Shown here in pieces: positions 3,890 to 28,806 of a stretch of 64,000 bases of DNA. Source of the DNA: Escherichia coli (GTDB lineage Bacteria > Pseudomonadota > Gammaproteobacteria > Enterobacterales > Enterobacteriaceae). The DNA lies in the NCBI RefSeq assembly GCF_013315695.1, contig NZ_CP054353.1. One strand, given 5' to 3'. The position numbers and the translations under genes were made by a program. The notes below the pieces were generated by a model. That model was not told the origin of the DNA and ran no database searches. It saw nothing but the letters and a program-made list of their open reading frames with translations. How positions within the stretch are numbered: the first letter of the stretch is position 1; every line of letters starts with the position of its first letter.

Positions 3890-6748
3890 CTAATCACGAT
3901 CGCGGAAGCTGTTCATCCCGGCGGATTGTCTGCGAATTTCTTCCCGTACAGCCTCCCCCACCATTCTGGCAAGGTCGCGCGGGTTCTGCGTCGCCACGTT
4001 GTGAAGATGAACGTGGATTTCCCCACCGAACACAGACGACGGTTCAGGAGAGCGCGAAGCCTCCCGGGTAGCCGGGGAGACTGGCGCCCACTGCTTAACC
4101 TCCACGGAACGGGAAGCATCCCGGGAGACCTCCGGAGGCACAGGCGAAACCGGAGGCATAACCGGTAGTCCTGGCGCAACAGTCGGCTCATTCCACTGCC
4201 CGCGAACAGCCAGCGCACGGGGGAGGTTTTTAAACACGATATCGCCGGGACCGATACGCTTGCGGGCTTCATGAAGCATGCCCGACGTATTACCCTCGAT
4301 ACCTTTAAGCCTGCGAAGAACGGCGCTGTTACCGCTGGTTATGCCGGGGGGATTGCTGGTTTTACCGTCATTCTGTGGATTACCATTCCCGTTGTTATTA
4401 TTGCTGACAGGAGCGGCCGGAGTGGGTACCCAGGACTTCTGAACCATTTTTTTCTGAACAGGGTCCCACTCCCACATAACCGGAGCCTTTGCAACTGCCT
4501 CAGCACGATTTTTCGCCCGCTCAACTTCAGAAGGGAGCACGCCGAGTTTTTCCAGCACCCATGCCAGGCCGTCCATCAACGCCTGAAGAGGAGTAAGCGC
4601 AAGCGATATCGCCCCGCTGAGCACGCGACCAAAAGTTTCCCCGACCGAGGCACACCGTTCAAGAGATTCATGGCTGGTCTGAACAGGTGTGAGTAACCGC
4701 CTGAACCAGTCATACACCGTGGACACCGCACCCGATACCAGATCAAACAGCGGCGCAAACTGAGCAACACCTTCACGAACAGGCGCAAGGCCAGCCCACA
4801 GCGCCCGGAATGTTCCGAGCATAAAAGCCTTAACCTGTTCCCAGTGACGCCATATGAGCAGCGCTCCACCGGCAAGGGCAGCAACCACGAGACCAACAGG
4901 ACTGAGAAGACCGGCAAGCGCCCCGCCCAGCACTGAAACCGCACCGGATACCATCCCCCACAGTGCCGGAAGGCCAGACAGGCGAAGGGCAAGACCACCA
5001 ACGCCAGTTGCAACAGAGGAAAACCCGCCACCAAGAAGCGCAGAGCCAAGCTGAAGTTTTGCAAAAATACCGGTCAGCACCCCGGAGGTCAGGGACAACG
5101 CCCCAAGGGCTGTCGTGGCCGCAAGAACACCACCGGCAACAATCGCCAGAGTACGCACCAGTTGCGGATTATCCTGAACCCATCCTCTGAGCCGTTCACC
5201 CCATGATACCGCTACCTGAACAAGTTCGCGGAGGTCATCGGTGACAAGGGCAACGACATCACTGCGTATACCGGAGAAGACACCAGACAGGCGATCGGCA
5301 TCACCGCCAAGGTTATCCCGCAGAACATCACCCATACGCCGGGCGGTTCCCTGCACCTGCCCCATACGGTCAGACACCGTTGCCAGCGAGCGGAGAAAAT
5401 CCGGGATCTGATCAACGGCCAGATCTTCGATGGGTGTGCCGAACAGCGCTATCGCCGCATTGGCTCGTTCCGCAGGATCCTGAATCTTCAGCAGCCCGGC
5501 AGCCGTTCGCTGCATTGCCTCGCGAGCAGCCGCGCCTCCGCTGGCAATCGCTGACAACATTTTTTCCGCATTAAGGCCAATCAGCCCATAAGCCTCAACG
5601 CTTGCTTTGGACATATCCGAGCCACGAATACTGAATTCCTTGACGGCATCGCCGGTTTTATCCAGGGCGAATTTCCCCTGCTGCGCCATGCTGACAAGCA
5701 GCGTCATGGTTTCAGAGCCGGAGAGCCCCATATTGCGGAAATGCGTGGAATACTCATGCAGAATTTCAGGAAGTTCGCCGCGCATTTCGGCGGACATTTT
5801 CTGCATGCCTGCCGCCATCAGGTCCACGGCCTCACCTGCATTTGCAGCGAGACCGTTTTTCAGCATGATGCCGGCCGCCTGAACCTGTTCAGCCACATTA
5901 CCGCCGGTGACCTGAGCAAGATCGATTGCCTGCCGTGTCACCCTCTCTAGTTCTTCAGTCCCTACAGTACCCAGTGCGCCAAGCGTGCTTTGCGCCGCAG
6001 CTGCCGCTTCGGAAATCATCGCGATATCCGTAGCCGCACCTGACGCACGGATGTTCTGAATCATACGGCTGTAGCGCTGGCCGTCTTCTGCGCTGCCTCC
6101 ACTCTGTGCCGCAATGAGCGCACCCTGCCGTTGCTCTTCAACAACAGGTGCAACCGCACGTCCGGCGGCGTACAGACCAGCACTGCCCGCTGCCATGGCA
6201 AGCGCACCGCGCTGGCTGAGTTTACCGGCGATATCCTGAACACGATCGTAACGTTGTTGTGCCTGCGTGACGCGCGCAAGCTGAGCCTGCTGGCGCTCAA
6301 GCTGATCGTTGTATTCCTGCGTTCGCCTGATTGCTTCTTCAGTGGTGCGGTTACTTCCGTCCGCCCGTATACCGTGAGACTCCAGCTCACGACCGGCTTC
6401 CCGTAGCCGGGACTGGTGAAGGGCGTAAACGGTATTAAGACGCTCAATCTTTGCAGTCAGTGAGCGGATAGCTTCCTGCTGTTTTTCCGTCAGTGTCGTG
6501 CCAGTACGCTGGACCTCCAGGAGGCGCTGAAGTCGCCCACGCGCCTCGTTCAGGCTGTTTTCAGTCGAGGCAACCTGCTGACGGGCACGGGAAAACGCAT
6601 CACTGCTTCGCTGGAGTGACTTAAGAGCGTTCTGCGTGGAGGAAAGAGATTCGGAAAGCGCGCCGGTCATTTCCCGGGCGCGCCTGACGGGTTGGGTGAG
6701 ACGGTCGACCGCAGTGAGGGCTACACGTATCTGGAGATTATTACTCAT
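3890..6748 (-). CDS. phage tail tape measure protein, P2 gpT-like
   Basis: long helical/Gly-rich ORF; track ORF starts at GTG 6802, ATG start (MSNNLQ) at 6748 overlaps the E' stop. Confidence 0.85.
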   Translation of the reverse strand: MSNNLQIRVALTAVDRLTQPVRRAREMTGALSESLSSTQNALKSLQRSSDAFSRARQQVASTENSLNEARGRLQRLLEVQRTGTTLTEKQQEAIRSLTAKIERLNTVYALHQSRLREAGRELESHGIRADGSNRTTEEAIRRTQEYNDQLERQQAQLARVTQAQQRYDRVQDIAGKLSQRGALAMAAGSAGLYAAGRAVAPVVEEQRQGALIAAQSGGSAEDGQRYSRMIQNIRASGAATDIAMISEAAAAAQSTLGALGTVGTEELERVTRQAIDLAQVTGGNVAEQVQAAGIMLKNGLAANAGEAVDLMAAGMQKMSAEMRGELPEILHEYSTHFRNMGLSGSETMTLLVSMAQQGKFALDKTGDAVKEFSIRGSDMSKASVEAYGLIGLNAEKMLSAIASGGAAAREAMQRTAAGLLKIQDPAERANAAIALFGTPIEDLAVDQIPDFLRSLATVSDRMGQVQGTARRMGDVLRDNLGGDADRLSGVFSGIRSDVVALVTDDLRELVQVAVSWGERLRGWVQDNPQLVRTLAIVAGGVLAATTALGALSLTSGVLTGIFAKLQLGSALLGGGFSSVATGVGGLALRLSGLPALWGMVSGAVSVLGGALAGLLSPVGLVVAALAGGALLIWRHWEQVKAFMLGTFRALWAGLAPVREGVAQFAPLFDLVSGAVSTVYDWFRRLLTPVQTSHESLERCASVGETFGRVLSGAISLALTPLQALMDGLAWVLEKLGVLPSEVERAKNRAEAVAKAPVMWEWDPVQKKMVQKSWVPTPAAPVSNNNNGNGNPQNDGKTSNPPGITSGNSAVLRRLKGIEGNTSGMLHEARKRIGPGDIVFKNLPRALAVRGQWNEPTVAPGLPVMPPVSPVPPEVSRDASRSVEVKQWAPVSPATREASRSPEPSSVFGGEIHVHLHNVATQNPRDLARMVGEAVREEIRRQSAGMNSFRDRD

Positions 6749-6895
6749 CGTTATGATTCCCGGATCTGGCAGCCGCCCGCTCTCGCCAGGCAACAACCTC
6801 ACCAGGACTCATACCGAATATCTCTGCGGGCGACCAGTTAAAGACAACAGCGATATCAGCGACAAGCTCTTCGATATCGTCAAACAGGAGACGAA

Positions 6896-9191: not shown

Positions 9192-10337
9192 ATGAACATC
9201 ACTGAATCACTGACACTTCACATCAACAGTGCACTGGATACCGCAGAAGACACAGTGCGGGTACCGGATTTCAGTATCACACTGGAAGGGCGGGATGCCA
9301 GCCTGAAAAACATCACGCAGCGCATCATGCGTCTCACCATGACAGACAACAGGGGATTTGAGGCCGACAGGGTGACACTGGAAATCGACGACGCTGACGG
9401 TGAGGTGGTTCTTCCGGAACGCGGCACCCGATTATCGCTGACCATGGGATGGAAAGGGGGAAGCCTGACAAACAAAGGGACGTTTGTTGTGGATGAAGTG
9501 GCGCACGACGGACCACCGGATAAGCTCACCATCTCCGCGAACAGCGCGGATTTTCGCGAAGAGTTTAACGTGAAACGCGAAGTCTCCTGGCATGACGTGA
9601 CGGTGGAGCGCGTGGTGTCTGCCATTGCCCACCGTTACGGACTGAAGGCACAAATCAGCGAGATGTTGATGGATATTGAAATCGACCATGCAGACCAGAC
9701 AGAGGAAAGTGATATGTCATTCCTCACTCGCATGGCCGACATGCTGGGTGCAATAGCCACCGTAAAAAACGGGTGTCTGCTGTTCATTCTGCCGGGAGGC
9801 GGCGTCACCGCCAGCGGTCGCGCCCTCCCCTCATTCGCCCTGACCCGCTCTGACGGAGACGGCCACCGCTTTCGCATTGCTGACAGAAACGCCTATACCG
9901 GAGTGAAGGCCCACTGGCTGGATTTAAAGTTCGGTCAGAAGAAGGCCGTGAACGTGAAAAAGCGAAACGCGCAAACCACGAAGAAGCCGGAGAAAAGCAG
10001 TGCGCGGGAAGGTGGTTACATGGAAGGCGCAGAGGGTAACGTGTATGTACTGAGAAAAACCTACCCGAACGAAGAAGCCGCGCGTCGTGCAGCTGCCGCA
10101 CGCTGGCAGCAACTTCAGCGGGGCGCAGCGGAATTCAGTATCACGCTGGCGCGCGGACGTGCTGACCTGTATCCGGAGATGCACGGCACGGTATCCGGAT
10201 TCAAGAGCGACATTGACAACCAGGACTGGATTATTTCGCGCATTGAGCACGTCATCGACGACAGCGGCTTCACCACCAGACTGGAGCTGGAAGCAAAAAT
10301 CGCAGACTGGATAGCAGAGAGTAACACGACTGGCTAG
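9192..10337 (+). CDS. phage late control/tail protein gpD-like
   Basis: ATG at 9192 with GGGAGGG SD; length and position before ogr as in P2. Confidence 0.8.
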   Translation: MNITESLTLHINSALDTAEDTVRVPDFSITLEGRDASLKNITQRIMRLTMTDNRGFEADRVTLEIDDADGEVVLPERGTRLSLTMGWKGGSLTNKGTFVVDEVAHDGPPDKLTISANSADFREEFNVKREVSWHDVTVERVVSAIAHRYGLKAQISEMLMDIEIDHADQTEESDMSFLTRMADMLGAIATVKNGCLLFILPGGGVTASGRALPSFALTRSDGDGHRFRIADRNAYTGVKAHWLDLKFGQKKAVNVKKRNAQTTKKPEKSSAREGGYMEGAEGNVYVLRKTYPNEEAARRAAAARWQQLQRGAAEFSITLARGRADLYPEMHGTVSGFKSDIDNQDWIISRIEHVIDDSGFTTRLELEAKIADWIAESNTTG

Positions 10338-10378
10338 AATGAGCGCGAGCCCACCCCGTTTCAGCCAGGGGGACCATC

Positions 10379-10681
10379 ATGCATCCTTGCCCATACTGCG
10401 GAGCAAGCACCCGCACCAGAACAAGCCGCAACGCCAACGACACAGGAACAATCAGGGAGAAATACTATCAGTGCAACAACATTGAATGCAGCGCAACCTT
10501 TGTGACGCACGAGTTTGTCGTGAGAACCGTATGCCGTCCGCAACCCACCGAAGAACGGGGAATCATCCCCACAGACGCTTTCAAATCATGCCACCGGGGA
10601 AGGGAACAACTCAGCCTCCCCCTGGGCGATTGCTCCTCCCAGTCAAAAACTGTACATTACGCGCGGGTGCCTTTCGGCTGA
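10379..10681 (+). CDS. ogr: Ogr/Delta-family zinc-finger late-gene activator
   Basis: N-terminal CPYCG..RTSR...YYQCNNIECSATF zinc-finger pattern typical of P2 Ogr; ORF is longer than the 72 aa of P2 Ogr. Confidence 0.75.
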   Translation: MHPCPYCGASTRTRTSRNANDTGTIREKYYQCNNIECSATFVTHEFVVRTVCRPQPTEERGIIPTDAFKSCHRGREQLSLPLGDCSSQSKTVHYARVPFG

Positions 10682-11193
10682 CGGCTGGAAGGATTACCTG
10701 AAGGCCGGATGTGGAAAGGCCCCGAGTCAAACATATTGTTTAACCCGAGGCCCTAACCATCCAACCGTGACAAGTGGAAGGTTAGCGCCTCTTTGAAAAA
10801 GGAGCAAGCGCTATGCCGCAAAAAACGATCATCGTGAGCATTTTATGCTTAACCATGTTGTTGACCGTCTGGATGATACACCGTTCGCCGTGTGAATTCA
10901 GACTTAACATCATGTGGTCAGAATTTGCGGCGTTCTTGCAGTGTAAACCGTAAGAAACCGCAGCGGGGGTGAAAGCCCCCGCTATCCGGTTGTTAAAGGT
11001 TCAGTCGAAAGTCGCACCCTTGCATGCAAGTCACAAAGAAAAAACAAAGCCCGTAGCGTAAAAACTGCGGGCTTTTTTGTTTCAAAGATGGACGTTATAT
11101 GGACACCTGAAAATAAATTCCTTTTATTTTCAATTAATTAACATAATGCAAAAAGCGCCCGCAGGCGCTTTTTAGATTCAGAAAAATTGGGTA

Positions 11194-12507
<1,314 letters not shown>

Positions 12508-22877: not shown

Positions 22878-24599
22878 ATGCGCGCTTTGCTACCCTATCT
22901 GGCACTGTATAAACGTCATAAATGGATGTTAAGTCTTGGTATTGTGCTGGCAATTGTCACGCTGCTCGCCAGTATCGGTCTGTTGACACTTTCCGGCTGG
23001 TTCCTCTCCGCCTCAGCGGTAGCGGGGGTTGCCGGACTGTACAGCTTCAACTATATGCTACCCGCTGCGGGCGTGCGTGGCGCAGCAATCACCCGTACTG
23101 CCGGGCGCTATTTTGAACGTCTGGTAAGTCACGACGCGACTTTCCGCGTGTTGCAGCATCTGCGCATTTATACCTTCAGCAAATTGCTGCCCCTCTCCCC
23201 TGCCGGACTGGCGCGCTATCGTCAGGGCGAATTGCTCAACCGCGTGGTGGCGGATGTTGATACGCTCGATCATCTTTACCTGCGCGTTATCTCGCCGCTG
23301 GTGGGCGCTTTTGTGGTGATTATGGTGGTGACAATCGGGTTAAGTTTCCTTGATTTCACCCTCGCCTTTACGCTGGGCGGCATTATGTTACTGACGCTTT
23401 TCCTTATGCCACCACTGTTTTATCGTGCGGGAAAAAGCACCGGGCAAAATCTGACTCATCTTCGCGGGCAGTATCGCCAACAACTGACGGCCTGGCTGCA
23501 AGGGCAAGCTGAGCTGACCATTTTTGGTGCCAGCGATCGTTATCGCACGCAGTTAGAGAATACCGAAATTCAGTGGCTGGAAGCGCAACGTCGTCAATCT
23601 GAACTCACCGCATTGTCGCAAGCGATAATGCTGCTCATTGGCGCGTTAGCGGTGATCCTGATGCTGTGGATGGCGTCTGGCGGCGTTGGCGGCAATGCTC
23701 AACCCGGCGCGTTAATTGCCCTGTTTGTCTTCTGCGCGTTAGCCGCGTTTGAAGCACTGGCACCAGTAACGGGTGCATTTCAGCATCTGGGGCAAGTCAT
23801 TGCCTCTGCCGTACGGATCACTGACTTAACGGATCAAAAACCGGAGGTCACCTTCCCTGATACCCAAACTCGTGTTGCCGATCGCGTTTCGCTGACGTTA
23901 CGGGATGTTCAGTTCACTTATCCGGAGCAATCCCAACAGGCACTTGAAGGGATTTCTCTTCAGGTAAACGCCGGAGAACATATAGCGATTCTCGGGCGAA
24001 CCGGATGCGGCAAATCAACATTGTTACAACTGCTGACCCGCGCATGGGACCCGCAACAGGGCGAGATTTTGCTTAACGATAGCCCCATAGCCAGCCTGAA
24101 TGAAGCGACTCTACGACAGACCATCAGCGTTGTGCCACAGCGAGTGCATCTGTTTAGCGCCACGCTGCGTGATAATCTGTTACTCGCCTCACCTGGCAGT
24201 AGTGATGAGGCTCTGGCGGAGATCTTACGTCGCGTTGGTCTGGAGAAGCTGCTCGAGGATGCAGGTCTCAACAGTTGGTTAGGTGAAGGCGGACGCCAGC
24301 TCTCCGGTGGTGAACTGCGCCGTCTGGCTATCGCCCGTGCGCTGTTACATGATGCGCCGCTGGTATTGCTGGATGAACCTACAGAAGGCTTAGATGCCAC
24401 AACCGAAAGTCAGATCCTTGAATTGCTTGCAGAAATGATGTGCGAGAAAACGGTGTTAATGGTCACCCATCGACTTCGCGGACTCTCTCGTTTCCAACAA
24501 ATAATAGTGATGGACAACGGGCAAATTATTGAGCAAGGTACTCACGCAGAACTGCTTGCCAGACAGGGGCGTTATTACCAGTTTAAGCAGGGTTTGTAA
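22878..24599 (+). CDS. cydC: cysteine/glutathione ABC exporter subunit CydC
   Basis: 573 aa; adjacent to cydD; ABC motifs. Confidence 0.95.
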   Translation: MRALLPYLALYKRHKWMLSLGIVLAIVTLLASIGLLTLSGWFLSASAVAGVAGLYSFNYMLPAAGVRGAAITRTAGRYFERLVSHDATFRVLQHLRIYTFSKLLPLSPAGLARYRQGELLNRVVADVDTLDHLYLRVISPLVGAFVVIMVVTIGLSFLDFTLAFTLGGIMLLTLFLMPPLFYRAGKSTGQNLTHLRGQYRQQLTAWLQGQAELTIFGASDRYRTQLENTEIQWLEAQRRQSELTALSQAIMLLIGALAVILMLWMASGGVGGNAQPGALIALFVFCALAAFEALAPVTGAFQHLGQVIASAVRITDLTDQKPEVTFPDTQTRVADRVSLTLRDVQFTYPEQSQQALEGISLQVNAGEHIAILGRTGCGKSTLLQLLTRAWDPQQGEILLNDSPIASLNEATLRQTISVVPQRVHLFSATLRDNLLLASPGSSDEALAEILRRVGLEKLLEDAGLNSWLGEGGRQLSGGELRRLAIARALLHDAPLVLLDEPTEGLDATTESQILELLAEMMCEKTVLMVTHRLRGLSRFQQIIVMDNGQIIEQGTHAELLARQGRYYQFKQGL

Positions 24600-26100: not shown

Positions 26101-26188
26101 GGTGAGGTGTCCGAGTGGCTGAAGGAGCACGCCTGGAAAGTGTGTATACGGCAACGTATCGGGGGTTCGAATCCCCCCCTCACCGCCA
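26101..26188 (+). tRNA. serW: tRNA-Ser (anticodon GGA)
   Basis: GGTGAGGTGTCCGAGTGG...long variable arm...GGTTCGAATCC...CACCGCCA; anticodon loop CTGGAAA. Confidence 0.9.
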
Positions 26189-26199
26189 TATTCAAAGAA

Positions 26200-26228
26200 G
26201 AGCTCGTACGAAAGTACGAGTTTTTTTT
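26200..26228 (+). terminator. rho-independent terminator after serW
   Basis: AGCTCGTACG-AAA-GTACGAG followed by T8. Confidence 0.6.
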
Positions 26229-26529
26229 CGCATTTTATCTGCCTGTACGGCAGTGAACGGTATAAAAATCGAGTTTTTCTTTCGGTTGGCTTTCTAAGCT
26301 GCCTGTACGGCAGTGAACTCAAATACTACACGTTTAGCTCGTTGTTGATAAAGAAAAATCATCTCATTTTCCTGCCGCACCCTTTTTTATTCTTACCTTC
26401 CAGCACCATTAATTATCAACAACTTACCTTCACATCCAAAAATAGGGTTTTCACCGTTCCACCCTACAAACAAAAAGTCCGTAACCTCTTTCGAGATTAC
26501 GGACTTCACCAACCTACCTAACAATTAGA

Positions 26530-28806
26530 TTAATGCGCTGCTTCCGCCTTGTGCTTTTGTGCACTCTGGAATCCGTAAGTCAGCTCATTTTTCTCTTTAT
26601 CCAGCGCAACCGTCACCTGACCGCCGTCCACCAGCGAACCAAACAACAGTTCGTTGGCGAGCGGTTTTTTCAGGTTGTCCTGGATGACACGCGCCATCGG
26701 ACGTGCGCCCATTGCCCGGTCGTAACCTTTCTCGGCCAGCCAGTTACGCGCTTCCTGGCTCACTTCCAGAGAAACACCTTTCTGATCCAGCTGAACCTGC
26801 AACTCGACGATGAATTTATCCACTACCTGATGGATCACGTCGGTGGAGAGATGATCGAACCAGATAATGTTGTCGAGACGGTTACGAAACTCCGGCGTAA
26901 AGATCTTCTTGATCTCTTCCATCGCATCGGTGCTGTTGTCCTGGTGGATAAGACCAATCGATTTACGCTCAGTTTCTCGTACCCCAGCGTTGGTGGTCAT
27001 CACCAATACCACGTTACGGAAGTCCGCTTTGCGTCCGTTGTTATCGGTCAGCGTACCGTTGTCCATCACCTGCAACAGAATATTGAACACGTCCGGATGC
27101 GCTTTCTCGATTTCGTCCAGCAGCAGTACCGCGTGCGGATGCTTGATTACCGCATCGGTCAGCAGCCCCCCCTGATCAAAACCAACGTATCCCGGAGGCG
27201 CACCAATCAGACGGCTGACGGTATGGCGTTCCATATACTCGGACATATCAAAGCGCAGAAGCTCAATGCCCAAAGCTTTCGAAAGCTGTACCGTCACCTC
27301 TGTTTTCCCGACCCCGGTAGGGCCGGCAAACAGGAACGAACCGACCGGTTTATGTTCGTGACCTAAACCTGCACGCGCCATCTTAATGGCTTCAGTCAGC
27401 GCCTCAATGGCTTTATCCTGACCGAAGACCAGCATTTTCAGGCGATCGCCGAGGTTTTTCAGGGTATCGCGGTCACTCTGAGAAACACTCTTCTCTGGAA
27501 TGCGTGCAATACGGGCCACCACGGACTCAATATCCGCCACATTAACGGTTTTCTTGCGTTTGCTGACCGGCATCAGACGCGCGCGAGCGCCCGCTTCGTC
27601 GATAACATCAATCGCTTTATCCGGCAGATGACGATCGTTAATGTATTTCACCGCCAACTCTACCGCCGCACGCACCGCTTTTGCGGTATAACGCACGTCG
27701 TGGTGCGCTTCATACTTCGGTTTCAGGCCATTGATGATTTGAACAGTTTCTTCGATCGACGGTTCAGTAATATCAATTTTCTGGAAGCGACGCGCCAGAG
27801 CACGGTCTTTCTCGAAAATGTTGCTGAACTCCTGATAGGTTGTCGAACCAATTACGCGAATTTTACCGCTGGAGAGCAGCGGTTTGATCAGGTTAGCCGC
27901 ATCGACCTGGCCACCAGACGCTGCACCCGCACCGATAATGGTGTGGATCTCATCAATAAACAGGATGCTGTTAGTGTCCTGCTCCAGCTGCTTGAGCAAC
28001 GCTTTAAAACGTTTTTCAAAGTCGCCGCGATATTTTGTGCCCGCTAACAGAGAACCGATATCGAGAGAGTAAATCGTACAGTCAGCCATCACTTCCGGCA
28101 CATCGCCCTGAACAATTCGCCAGGCAAGACCTTCCGCAATCGCGGTTTTACCGACACCAGACTCCCCCACCAGCAGCGGGTTGTTTTTACGGCGACGGCA
28201 GAGAACCTGAATAGCACGCTCCAGCTCCTTCTCACGACCAATCAGTGGGTCGATTCCGCCCACTCGCGCAAGCTGATTCAGGTTCGTCGTGAAATTCTCC
28301 ATACGTTCCTCCCCACCAGCTTGTTCTTCGCTGTTTGGCTGGCTGCCAGGATCAGAAGACTGTGTCGGCTCGTCTTTACGCGTGCCATGAGAGATAAAGT
28401 TCACCACATCGAGACGGCTGACTTCATGTTTACGCAACAGATATGCCGCCTGCGACTCCTGTTCGCTAAAGATAGCGACCAGAACGTTTGCACCGGTAAC
28501 CTCATTGCGACCGGAGGACTGGACATGGAAGACCGCACGTTGCAGTACACGCTGAAAACTCAGCGTCGGCTGTGTGTCGCGCTCCTCTTCACTGGCAGGC
28601 AGAACGGGTGTGGTTTGTTCAATAAAGGCTTCCAGTTCCTGACGGAGCGCAACCAAATCCACAGAACACGCTTCCAGCGCCTCCCGGGCAGATGGGTTAC
28701 TGAGCAGCGCCAGTAACAAGTGCTCGACGGTCATAAACTCATGACGGTGCTCGCGCGCTCTGGCGAAAGCCATATTTAAACTGAGTTCCAGTTCTTGATT
28801 GAGCAT
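26530..28806 (-). CDS. clpA: ATP-dependent Clp protease ATP-binding subunit ClpA
   Basis: 758 aa from ATG 28806 ([24 protein letters not shown]). Confidence 0.95.

Follow-up and report, generated by a model that had tools for sequence, protein, structure and literature searches.

What does the short open reading frame (ORF) between the prophage gene ogr and serS encode, how would it be controlled, and why does it stand there? The question arises in a window of 64,000 nucleotides (the whole stretch of Escherichia coli DNA that was analysed; contig NZ_CP054353.1 of assembly GCF_013315695.1), where 512 bp separate the ogr stop (10681) from the serS stop (11194), in keeping with the gap of about 500 bp given by the sequence-only reading. 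The ORF occupies 10813–10953 on the plus strand, starts with ATG and encodes the 46-aa peptide MPQKTIIVSILCLTMLLTVWMIHRSPCEFRLNIMWSEFAAFLQCKP, as that reading had described. The AGGAG ribosome site it had reported is present (10800–10804), but the spacing to the ATG measures 8 nt rather than 7. Length alone carries no significance here, because 61 ORFs of at least 20 aa are listed within 3.3 kb. Residues 5–22 have a mean Kyte–Doolittle hydropathy of 2.45, which agrees with the proposal of a small membrane-protein gene. The suggestions that the ORF is unannotated and was missed by length cut-offs did not hold: NCBI's PGAP annotates it, and in RefSeq the identical ORF is the 'Hok/Gef family protein' WP_001135720.1 in E. 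coli MSB1_4I and other strains. This kind of gene is already known and already named in databases, and in that respect the finding is ordinary.

Family membership is well defined at the level of the profile. Pfam HOK_GEF (PF01848) matches with 27.8 bits (E=1.9e-6), above its curated gathering cut-off of 22, and aligns peptide residues 9–44 with profile positions 7–42 of 42; PHROG 251 ('MokW-like host killing') matches with E=4.6e-19. The best NCBIfam match is HokA (NF007290), whose 37.9 bits fall far under the equivalog cut-off of 89, so the peptide is a member of the Hok family by sequence and not a HokA orthologue. Likewise, the Hok subfamily model NF007279 scores 27.3 bits, below its cut-off of 73, and membership is claimed at family level only. 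HokA of E. coli K-12, a chromosomal protein of 50 aa, shares 43% identity, the MPQK start and the AAFL.CK end with the window peptide. A search of PDB sequences gave no match to the peptide.

Hok peptides have been described as ~50 aa long with a single N-terminal transmembrane helix and with C16, T18, L30, C31, E32 and E41 (logo numbering) as family traits (bioRxiv 10.1101/2025.08.07.668861). The family residues C12, T14, C27, E28 and E37 are all present in the window peptide, and its conserved C12, T14, C27, E28 and C44 align with Hok R1, HokA and HokW. The sole exception is the leucine before the first conserved cysteine, nearly invariant in Hok, which is Pro26 here (SPCE) and P, H or L within the lineage. 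On this sequence evidence the ORF is very probably the toxin gene of a type I hok/sok toxin–antitoxin module.

The position of the module was resolved by comparison with E. coli MSB1_4I (NZ_LR898874.1), which is 100% identical over 10682–11193 and in which the neighbouring ORFs are late control gene D, ogr, serS, rarA and lolA. In the window, ogr (10379–10681, plus strand; 100 aa) is RefSeq-annotated and matches Pfam Ogr_Delta (E=5e-16 on residues 4–51), and serS (11194–12486, minus strand) is the right-hand neighbour of the module. A 16-bp sequence, AAAAAGCGCCCGCAGG, is common to the attR and attL sides of the MSB1_4I prophage as the joint sequence of both junctions and forms the left half of the serS terminator; the attR core lies within that terminator at 11150–11165, and attL is ~38 kb away in MSB1_4I, between the phage integrase gene and dmsA. 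In prophage-free K-12 and ~4,400 other genomes, homology starts at 11150 and extends rightwards only. The hok module follows ogr and stands ~65 nt in from the attR core; read rightwards, the series is D, ogr, hok and the 16-bp core, and both att copies could be identified. The earlier idea of prophage 'moron cargo' near attR is borne out by the module's place on the prophage side of the core. Judged by sequence, the prophage is ~38 kb long, belongs to the P2 family (Peduoviridae) and is closest to phage P88 (Xuanwuvirus). We are accordingly confident that a P88-like prophage, integrated in the serS terminator, carries the module at its right end as accessory cargo. For annotation, the serS–ogr gap should carry a Hok/Gef coding sequence, an antisense Sok RNA and the attR core.

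Phage P88 (hok gene SF19_gp52) and phage Chuche carry a 46-aa hok in the same place, in the order D, ogr, hok, att, with a homologous terminator. The D–ogr–hok arrangement was found in 15 of 80 phage contigs in addition to P88, and the Lom–hok–orf30 arrangement typical of Stx phages in 43 of the 80. A preprint by Escalera-Maurer et al. (bioRxiv 10.1101/2025.08.07.668861, 2026) catalogues 1264 Hok peptides and reports that hok is enriched in prophages; the window peptide was not found in its supplementary files. The lineage of the window is represented there by 82_1289 (MPQKTIIVGMLC...CKP, 46 aa; 80% identity), which is the O157 copy, and the entries of cluster 72 are of the P88 and Stx-phage type. 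The P88 module belongs to the cluster 72 type and has ~74% DNA and 48% protein identity to the window module, whereas the latter is of the cluster 82 type and is closer (~84% DNA identity) to Stx2-phage modules, for example that of phage 86. This implies that the module is exchanged between phage families. Our literature search on hok in P2-like phages or phage P88 returned nothing specific.

At its left boundary the module overlaps ogr, whose last codons coincide with the putative hok promoter and with 17 nt at the start of the hok mRNA. Ogr is 100 aa long here, whereas the NCBIfam Ogr model has 72 aa and P88 Ogr has 86 aa; P88 Ogr stops short of the module, and the last ~18 codons of the window ogr cross the hok promoter, as if the module had recombined into the ogr end. 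Read-through transcription from ogr would yield a 5'-extended hok RNA. On the other side, the stretch that separates the hok terminator from the att core contains a direct repeat, ATGGACGTTATATGGACAC (11089–11107), and a similar sequence, ATGGACAGTTTATGGACAC, lies on the integrase side of attL in MSB1_4I (L008, about 27965–28050); the two are probably arm-type integrase binding sites.

The surroundings of the ORF follow the layout of hok/sok (parB) of plasmid R1. The region 10640–11100 aligns with the R1-type hok/sok locus across leader, coding sequence and 3' UTR, and with phage hok loci. As in R1, the order is a weak hok promoter, tac, a ucb-like box, Sok antisense to the leader, hok, a 3' hairpin, fbi and a terminator. 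The proteins belong to one family, with 35% identity between the window Hok and Hok R1. The window Hok has 46 rather than 52 aa, the end of the N-terminal helix and the C-terminal tail both being shorter. The window leader is also ~25 nt shorter and lacks a mok frame, and the module is borne by a prophage instead of a plasmid. Another related system is the likewise prophage-borne hokW-sokW of the Stx2 prophage Sp5 (E. coli O157 Sakai; Takada et al. 2021, PMC8621323), which has the same leader layout (GGTTAGC..CTC..AAGGAG) and the same Sok −10 hexamer, TAACCT. HokW differs in its length of 51 aa, with 28% identity, and its host phage is lambdoid as opposed to P2-like.

Rfam RF01794 matches 10665–10823 on the plus strand over model positions 1–157 of 157 with E=1.5e-9 and 50.6 bits, short of the gathering score of 59; a gathering-threshold Rfam scan of the whole window accordingly reported no hok/sok family. 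The RF01794 model is named 'sok antitoxin', but its consensus begins like the 5' end of the R1 hok mRNA and matches the hok-sense strand, so the match marks the hok leader and not the antitoxin strand. Rfam matches to Thr_leader, STnc130 and Atu_C9 were dismissed as merely the two terminators.

The full-length hok mRNA would extend from 10665 to 11082 on the plus strand and comprise the leader, the hok coding sequence, a 3' UTR with fbi and the terminator. The putative hok promoter (10630–10658, plus strand) was placed by its offset from the conserved mRNA 5' end GGGTGCC and consists of a −35 TTGCTC (10630–10635), a 17-nt spacer and a −10 TACATT (10653–10658). A TAnAnT hexamer occurs at the −10 offset in 67 of 68 related loci containing the GGGTGCC landmark, and TTGCnn or TTGTCC at the −35 offset in ~60 of 72. 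A simple sigma-70 consensus scan of 10300–11300 called neither the hok nor the Sok promoter, and both assignments therefore rest on homology and conservation. The intrinsic terminator (11046–11082, plus strand), an 11-bp stem followed by a T run, is homologous to the one at the same place in P88.

Folding of the predicted mRNA (10663–11082) gave a minimum free energy (MFE) of −176 kcal/mol (z=−9.9 relative to shuffles) with the 5' and 3' ends paired. The tac-like 5' element GGGTGCCTTTCGGCTGA (10665–10681, plus strand) is invariant in 10 aligned loci; its partner is fbi when the full-length RNA is folded and 10714–10723 when the truncated RNA is folded. The fbi-like element (11001–11019, plus strand) thereby engages the first 19 nt of the folded mRNA in a helix of 17 pairs; 95% of cells are paired across the 10 loci, as against 35–52% when the partner is slid by 1–3 columns. 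Changes in this helix are one-sided G-C/G-U exchanges only, and two-sided covariation is missing because the 5' side is invariant. The alternative partner of tac after fbi removal, the ucb-like box GAAAGGCCCC (10714–10723, plus strand), forms with tac the hairpin of the RNAalifold consensus (alignment columns 8–19 with 58–68), which is unchanged in 10/10 loci. In the predicted folds, tac/fbi and tac/ucb are a mutually exclusive structure pair as in hok mRNAs.

Two further elements are shared among the aligned loci. The dcb-like box TTTGCGGCGT (10924–10933, plus strand) pairs with the hok start region (10813–10822), with the same partners in the full-length and truncated folds; ten consecutive pairs (columns 160–169 with 271–280) are kept in 10/10 loci, eight of them unchanged, one altered from C-G to U-G in three sequences and one broken in a single sequence. 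In the 3' UTR hairpin GCAGCGGGGG tgaaag CCCCCGCT (10961–10984, plus strand), both sides of four pairs have changed in a compensatory way. A scan had called 10961–10984 as a terminator-like site of the minus strand, but a place within the hok mRNA accounts for the stretch better.

On the opposite strand, the sequence carries what an antisense sok gene with its own promoter, overlapping the hok leader, would be predicted to have. The putative Sok promoter (10779–10807, minus strand) combines a −35 TTGCTC (10807→10802), a 17-nt spacer and a −10 TAACCT (10784→10779). It overlaps the hok Shine–Dalgarno (SD) sequence, the Sok −35 lying over the SD as in R1. The motif AGGTTAGCGCC was found in 69 of 72 related loci with the TAACCT hexamer kept. 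A promoter-less sokW construct (primers YO-421/422) destroyed TAACCT at the homologous place and lost antitoxin activity (PMC8621323). The predicted Sok RNA itself (~58 nt, 10715–10772, minus strand) would have a 5' tail, a long hairpin and a UUU end. The minus strand from 10776 to 10695, which is homologous to the R1 Sok region by alignment, folds with −46.8 kcal/mol (z=−7.4).

Its presumed target is a hairpin in the leader, CTAACC...GGTTAG (10754–10784, plus strand), which occupies the position of the mok start in R1 and hokW. The stem of this hairpin is conserved and its loop is variable. Predicted accessibility of the loop rises on 3' truncation, from 0.16 to 0.64 in one estimate and from 0.27 to 0.63 in another. 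A YUNR motif, which 36 of 44 distinct relatives carry in this loop, is missing from the window copy.

Following the homology to R1 hok/sok and hokW-sokW, we take the R1 scheme as a working model, in which the full-length mRNA is inert, 3' trimming activates it, the unstable Sok represses it and Hok damages the membrane (PMC9841398). In the window, a weak promoter would give rise to a stable hok mRNA of ~418 nt (10665–11082) that stays translationally inert while tac is held by fbi and both the SD and the AUG of hok are sequestered in base pairs. Slow trimming of the 3' end would remove fbi, whereupon the 5' end would refold onto 10714–10723 and expose the Sok target and the ribosome-binding site. 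Short-lived Sok (minus strand, about 10772→10715) would then bind the leader and either block expression or trigger decay. Once Sok synthesis stops, which could follow loss of the element or a transcription shut-off by an infecting phage or on prophage induction, the accumulated hok mRNA would be translated, and the single-helix Hok peptide would insert in the inner membrane and kill or lyse the cell.

The most likely benefit of such a module would be retention of the prophage end (addiction), possibly with phage exclusion or help in lysis. Type I toxin–antitoxin modules at prophage ends can stabilise the element, affect lysis and exclude other phages, and the present hok/sok adds one more prophage end to those that carry one. 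A working hok/sok might instead serve mainly in abortive-infection defence against other (lytic) phages and not in stabilising the prophage, which we regard as a serious but unlikely alternative. P2-family prophages are known carriers of anti-phage cargo, and a shut-off of host transcription would deplete Sok. R1 hok/sok on a high-copy plasmid lowers the plating of T4 (as cited in PMC8621323). On the other hand, no PADLOC model matched, and the sequence discriminates between none of these roles.

Less likely again is a module that acts for the phage at induction, when loss of Sok would let Hok damage the membrane and cause more or earlier phage release. P2-type prophages are generally not SOS-inducible, a point that weighs against this role. 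Its appeal comes from hokW-sokW, the deletion of which halved the number of released Sp5 phage, and from HokW, which is made after mitomycin C in a RecA-dependent manner (PMC8621323); the ~84% identity of the window module to Stx-phage modules points the same way. Nevertheless, hokW-sokW represents a different Hok cluster (51 aa, mok-type start) and is carried by a lambdoid, SOS-inducible phage.

How Sok could control hok in this lineage is less straightforward, and the absence of mok across the lineage is the sole point that merits specialist attention. In R1, hok is not translated unless the mok leader ORF is translated as far as the hok SD. We searched all frames for a start codon 4–14 nt after the leader GAGG that opens an ORF reaching the hok SD. 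Such a mok-type start occurs in none of the 65 distinct loci of the 46-aa lineage; among the controls, it is present in 45 of 48 distinct hokW-type loci, as well as in the R1-type locus. In 35 of the 65 lineage loci, no leader ORF reaches the SD in any frame. The window leader contains solely a non-conserved 9-codon GTG ORF (10767–10796). Directly after GAGGCC, ~30 of 34 listed variants have CTAA, CTGA, TGA or TAA. The stretch compared is 10745–10800 of the window, with loci L015–L094 set against the hokW-type loci L097–L176.

A related observation concerns mok itself. Both the R1-type locus that was fetched (L007, plasmid pMTY1886_IncFII, 390–610) and the majority of hokW-type loci have the 'mok' ATG 57 nt ahead of the hok ATG, in frame and without an intervening stop; RefSeq annotates the gene of L007 from the internal start (508–609). 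In these loci an in-frame 'Mok' would be an N-terminally extended Hok, not an overlapping out-of-frame product.

The predicted structures offer a way in which Sok might act in the absence of mok. In the MFE fold, an anti-SD/SD helix (10789–10804, plus strand) pairs 10789–10794 with the hok SD AAGGAG (10799–10804). The probability that the SD of the window locus is unpaired is 0.01 in the full-length mRNA, 0.25 after truncation at 10990 and 0.48 after truncation at 10960, and returns to 0.01 with the Sok target blocked; as a thermodynamic prediction for 45 loci, mean SD accessibility runs from 0.01 through 0.15 back to 0.01. We tentatively propose, giving it slightly less than an even chance, that the 46-aa lineage (clusters 72 and 82) is a working mok-free hok/sok in which Sok acts through an RNA structural switch. 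Under such a mechanism, hok would be translated directly from its own strong Shine–Dalgarno sequence, and the anti-SD/SD helix would be closed in the full-length mRNA, partly open after 3' trimming and reclosed by Sok binding upstream. Provided that these loci are active, a large phage-borne group of hok genes does not obey the textbook rule by which Sok reaches hok only via mok.

The same absence could mean that the locus is an evolutionary relic, related to hok but unable to express the toxin, as are several chromosomal K-12 hok loci. We consider this improbable. Apart from the missing mok start at the place where R1-type and hokW-type loci have one, and given that R1 requires mok translation, it would account for the change from Leu to Pro in the conserved LCE motif, the sub-threshold Rfam and NCBIfam scores and the non-consensus promoters. 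Mok, however, is absent lineage-wide (0/65) and not by a lesion of the window copy, and the promoters, the tac/fbi pairing and the 3' hairpin with its compensatory changes have all been kept. Substitution of alanine for the conserved Leu of Hok R1 did not abolish toxicity (bioRxiv 10.1101/2025.08.07.668861). The same preprint tested 45 representatives and found three unrelated peptides to be non-toxic; clusters 82 and 72 are of high abundance, their representatives were tested, and they are absent from those three. Since the coding sequences were tested behind a constant SD, these data are silent on native expression, and mok, Sok and the mRNA elements were explicitly outside that analysis.

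Constraint on the coding frame also weighs against decay. All 14 related ORFs first collected encode 46 aa, as do 88 of the 89 ORF copies in 80 IMG/VR phage contigs, the remaining one encoding 45 aa. The 89 copies comprise 23 distinct peptides, and although the motif used to search for relatives admitted ~37–59 aa, every intact relative has 45–46 aa. Pairwise dN/dS is 0.14–0.5, typically ~0.2–0.3, in pairs differing at ≥12% of ORF positions, and reaches 0.69 in near-identical pairs. Conservation of the frame in related strains, which had been named beforehand as a check on the ORF, was thus found in related loci and phage contigs alike, and the sequences show the 46-aa frame to be under purifying selection. 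A small probability that the window copy or the lineage is poorly expressed remains, because there is no mok, no YUNR in the target loop and a Pro in LCE, but it is outweighed by the coding and structural constraint.

The Pfam and PHROG matches, the kept length and a dN/dS below 1 together identify the ORF as a real gene. That it is a chance open frame, or that the real gene is a 43-aa ORF on the opposite strand (10913→10782), has a negligible probability and was rejected: many short ORFs do arise by chance and the antisense frame is open in relatives too, yet the latter has neither a conserved start codon nor a family match, the Pfam and PHROG matches are specific to the plus-strand frame, and dN/dS in that frame is well below 1.

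Besides the single module of the window, tandem 46-aa hok loci (two or three copies, sometimes of both peptide types) stand beside serS in other E. coli strains (L004, 2160–2771; L011, 1159–1771; L012, 436–1774; L010, 910–1772). Two strains have the tandem hok genes behind a different prophage of myovirus type (with DUF2586/DUF2590 genes) and not behind a D–ogr end. This arrangement suggests successive integrations or recombination at the att site, rather than simple duplication alone. Hok islets of 2–6 hok genes have already been described (bioRxiv 10.1101/2025.08.07.668861).

Outside the window, the MSB1_4I prophage (L008) has further cargo candidates at 22989–23195 and 4847–6784. A ParE family toxin-like gene adjoins a DNA adenine methylase gene, and between the lysis and tail genes there is a DUF6645 gene of 1.9 kb; these are probable additional cargo of this prophage. 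Elsewhere in the window, tRNA-Ser(GGA) at 26101–26188 is followed by two CRISPR repeat copies (region 26101–26318) whose shared part, CTGCCTGTACGGCAGTGAAC, occurs at 26239–26258 and 26299–26318 with a spacing of 60 nt (Rfam CRISPR-DR4, 50.1 bits). This one-spacer orphan array resembles the type I-F remnant, lacking cas genes, that is known from E. coli near clpA/infA.
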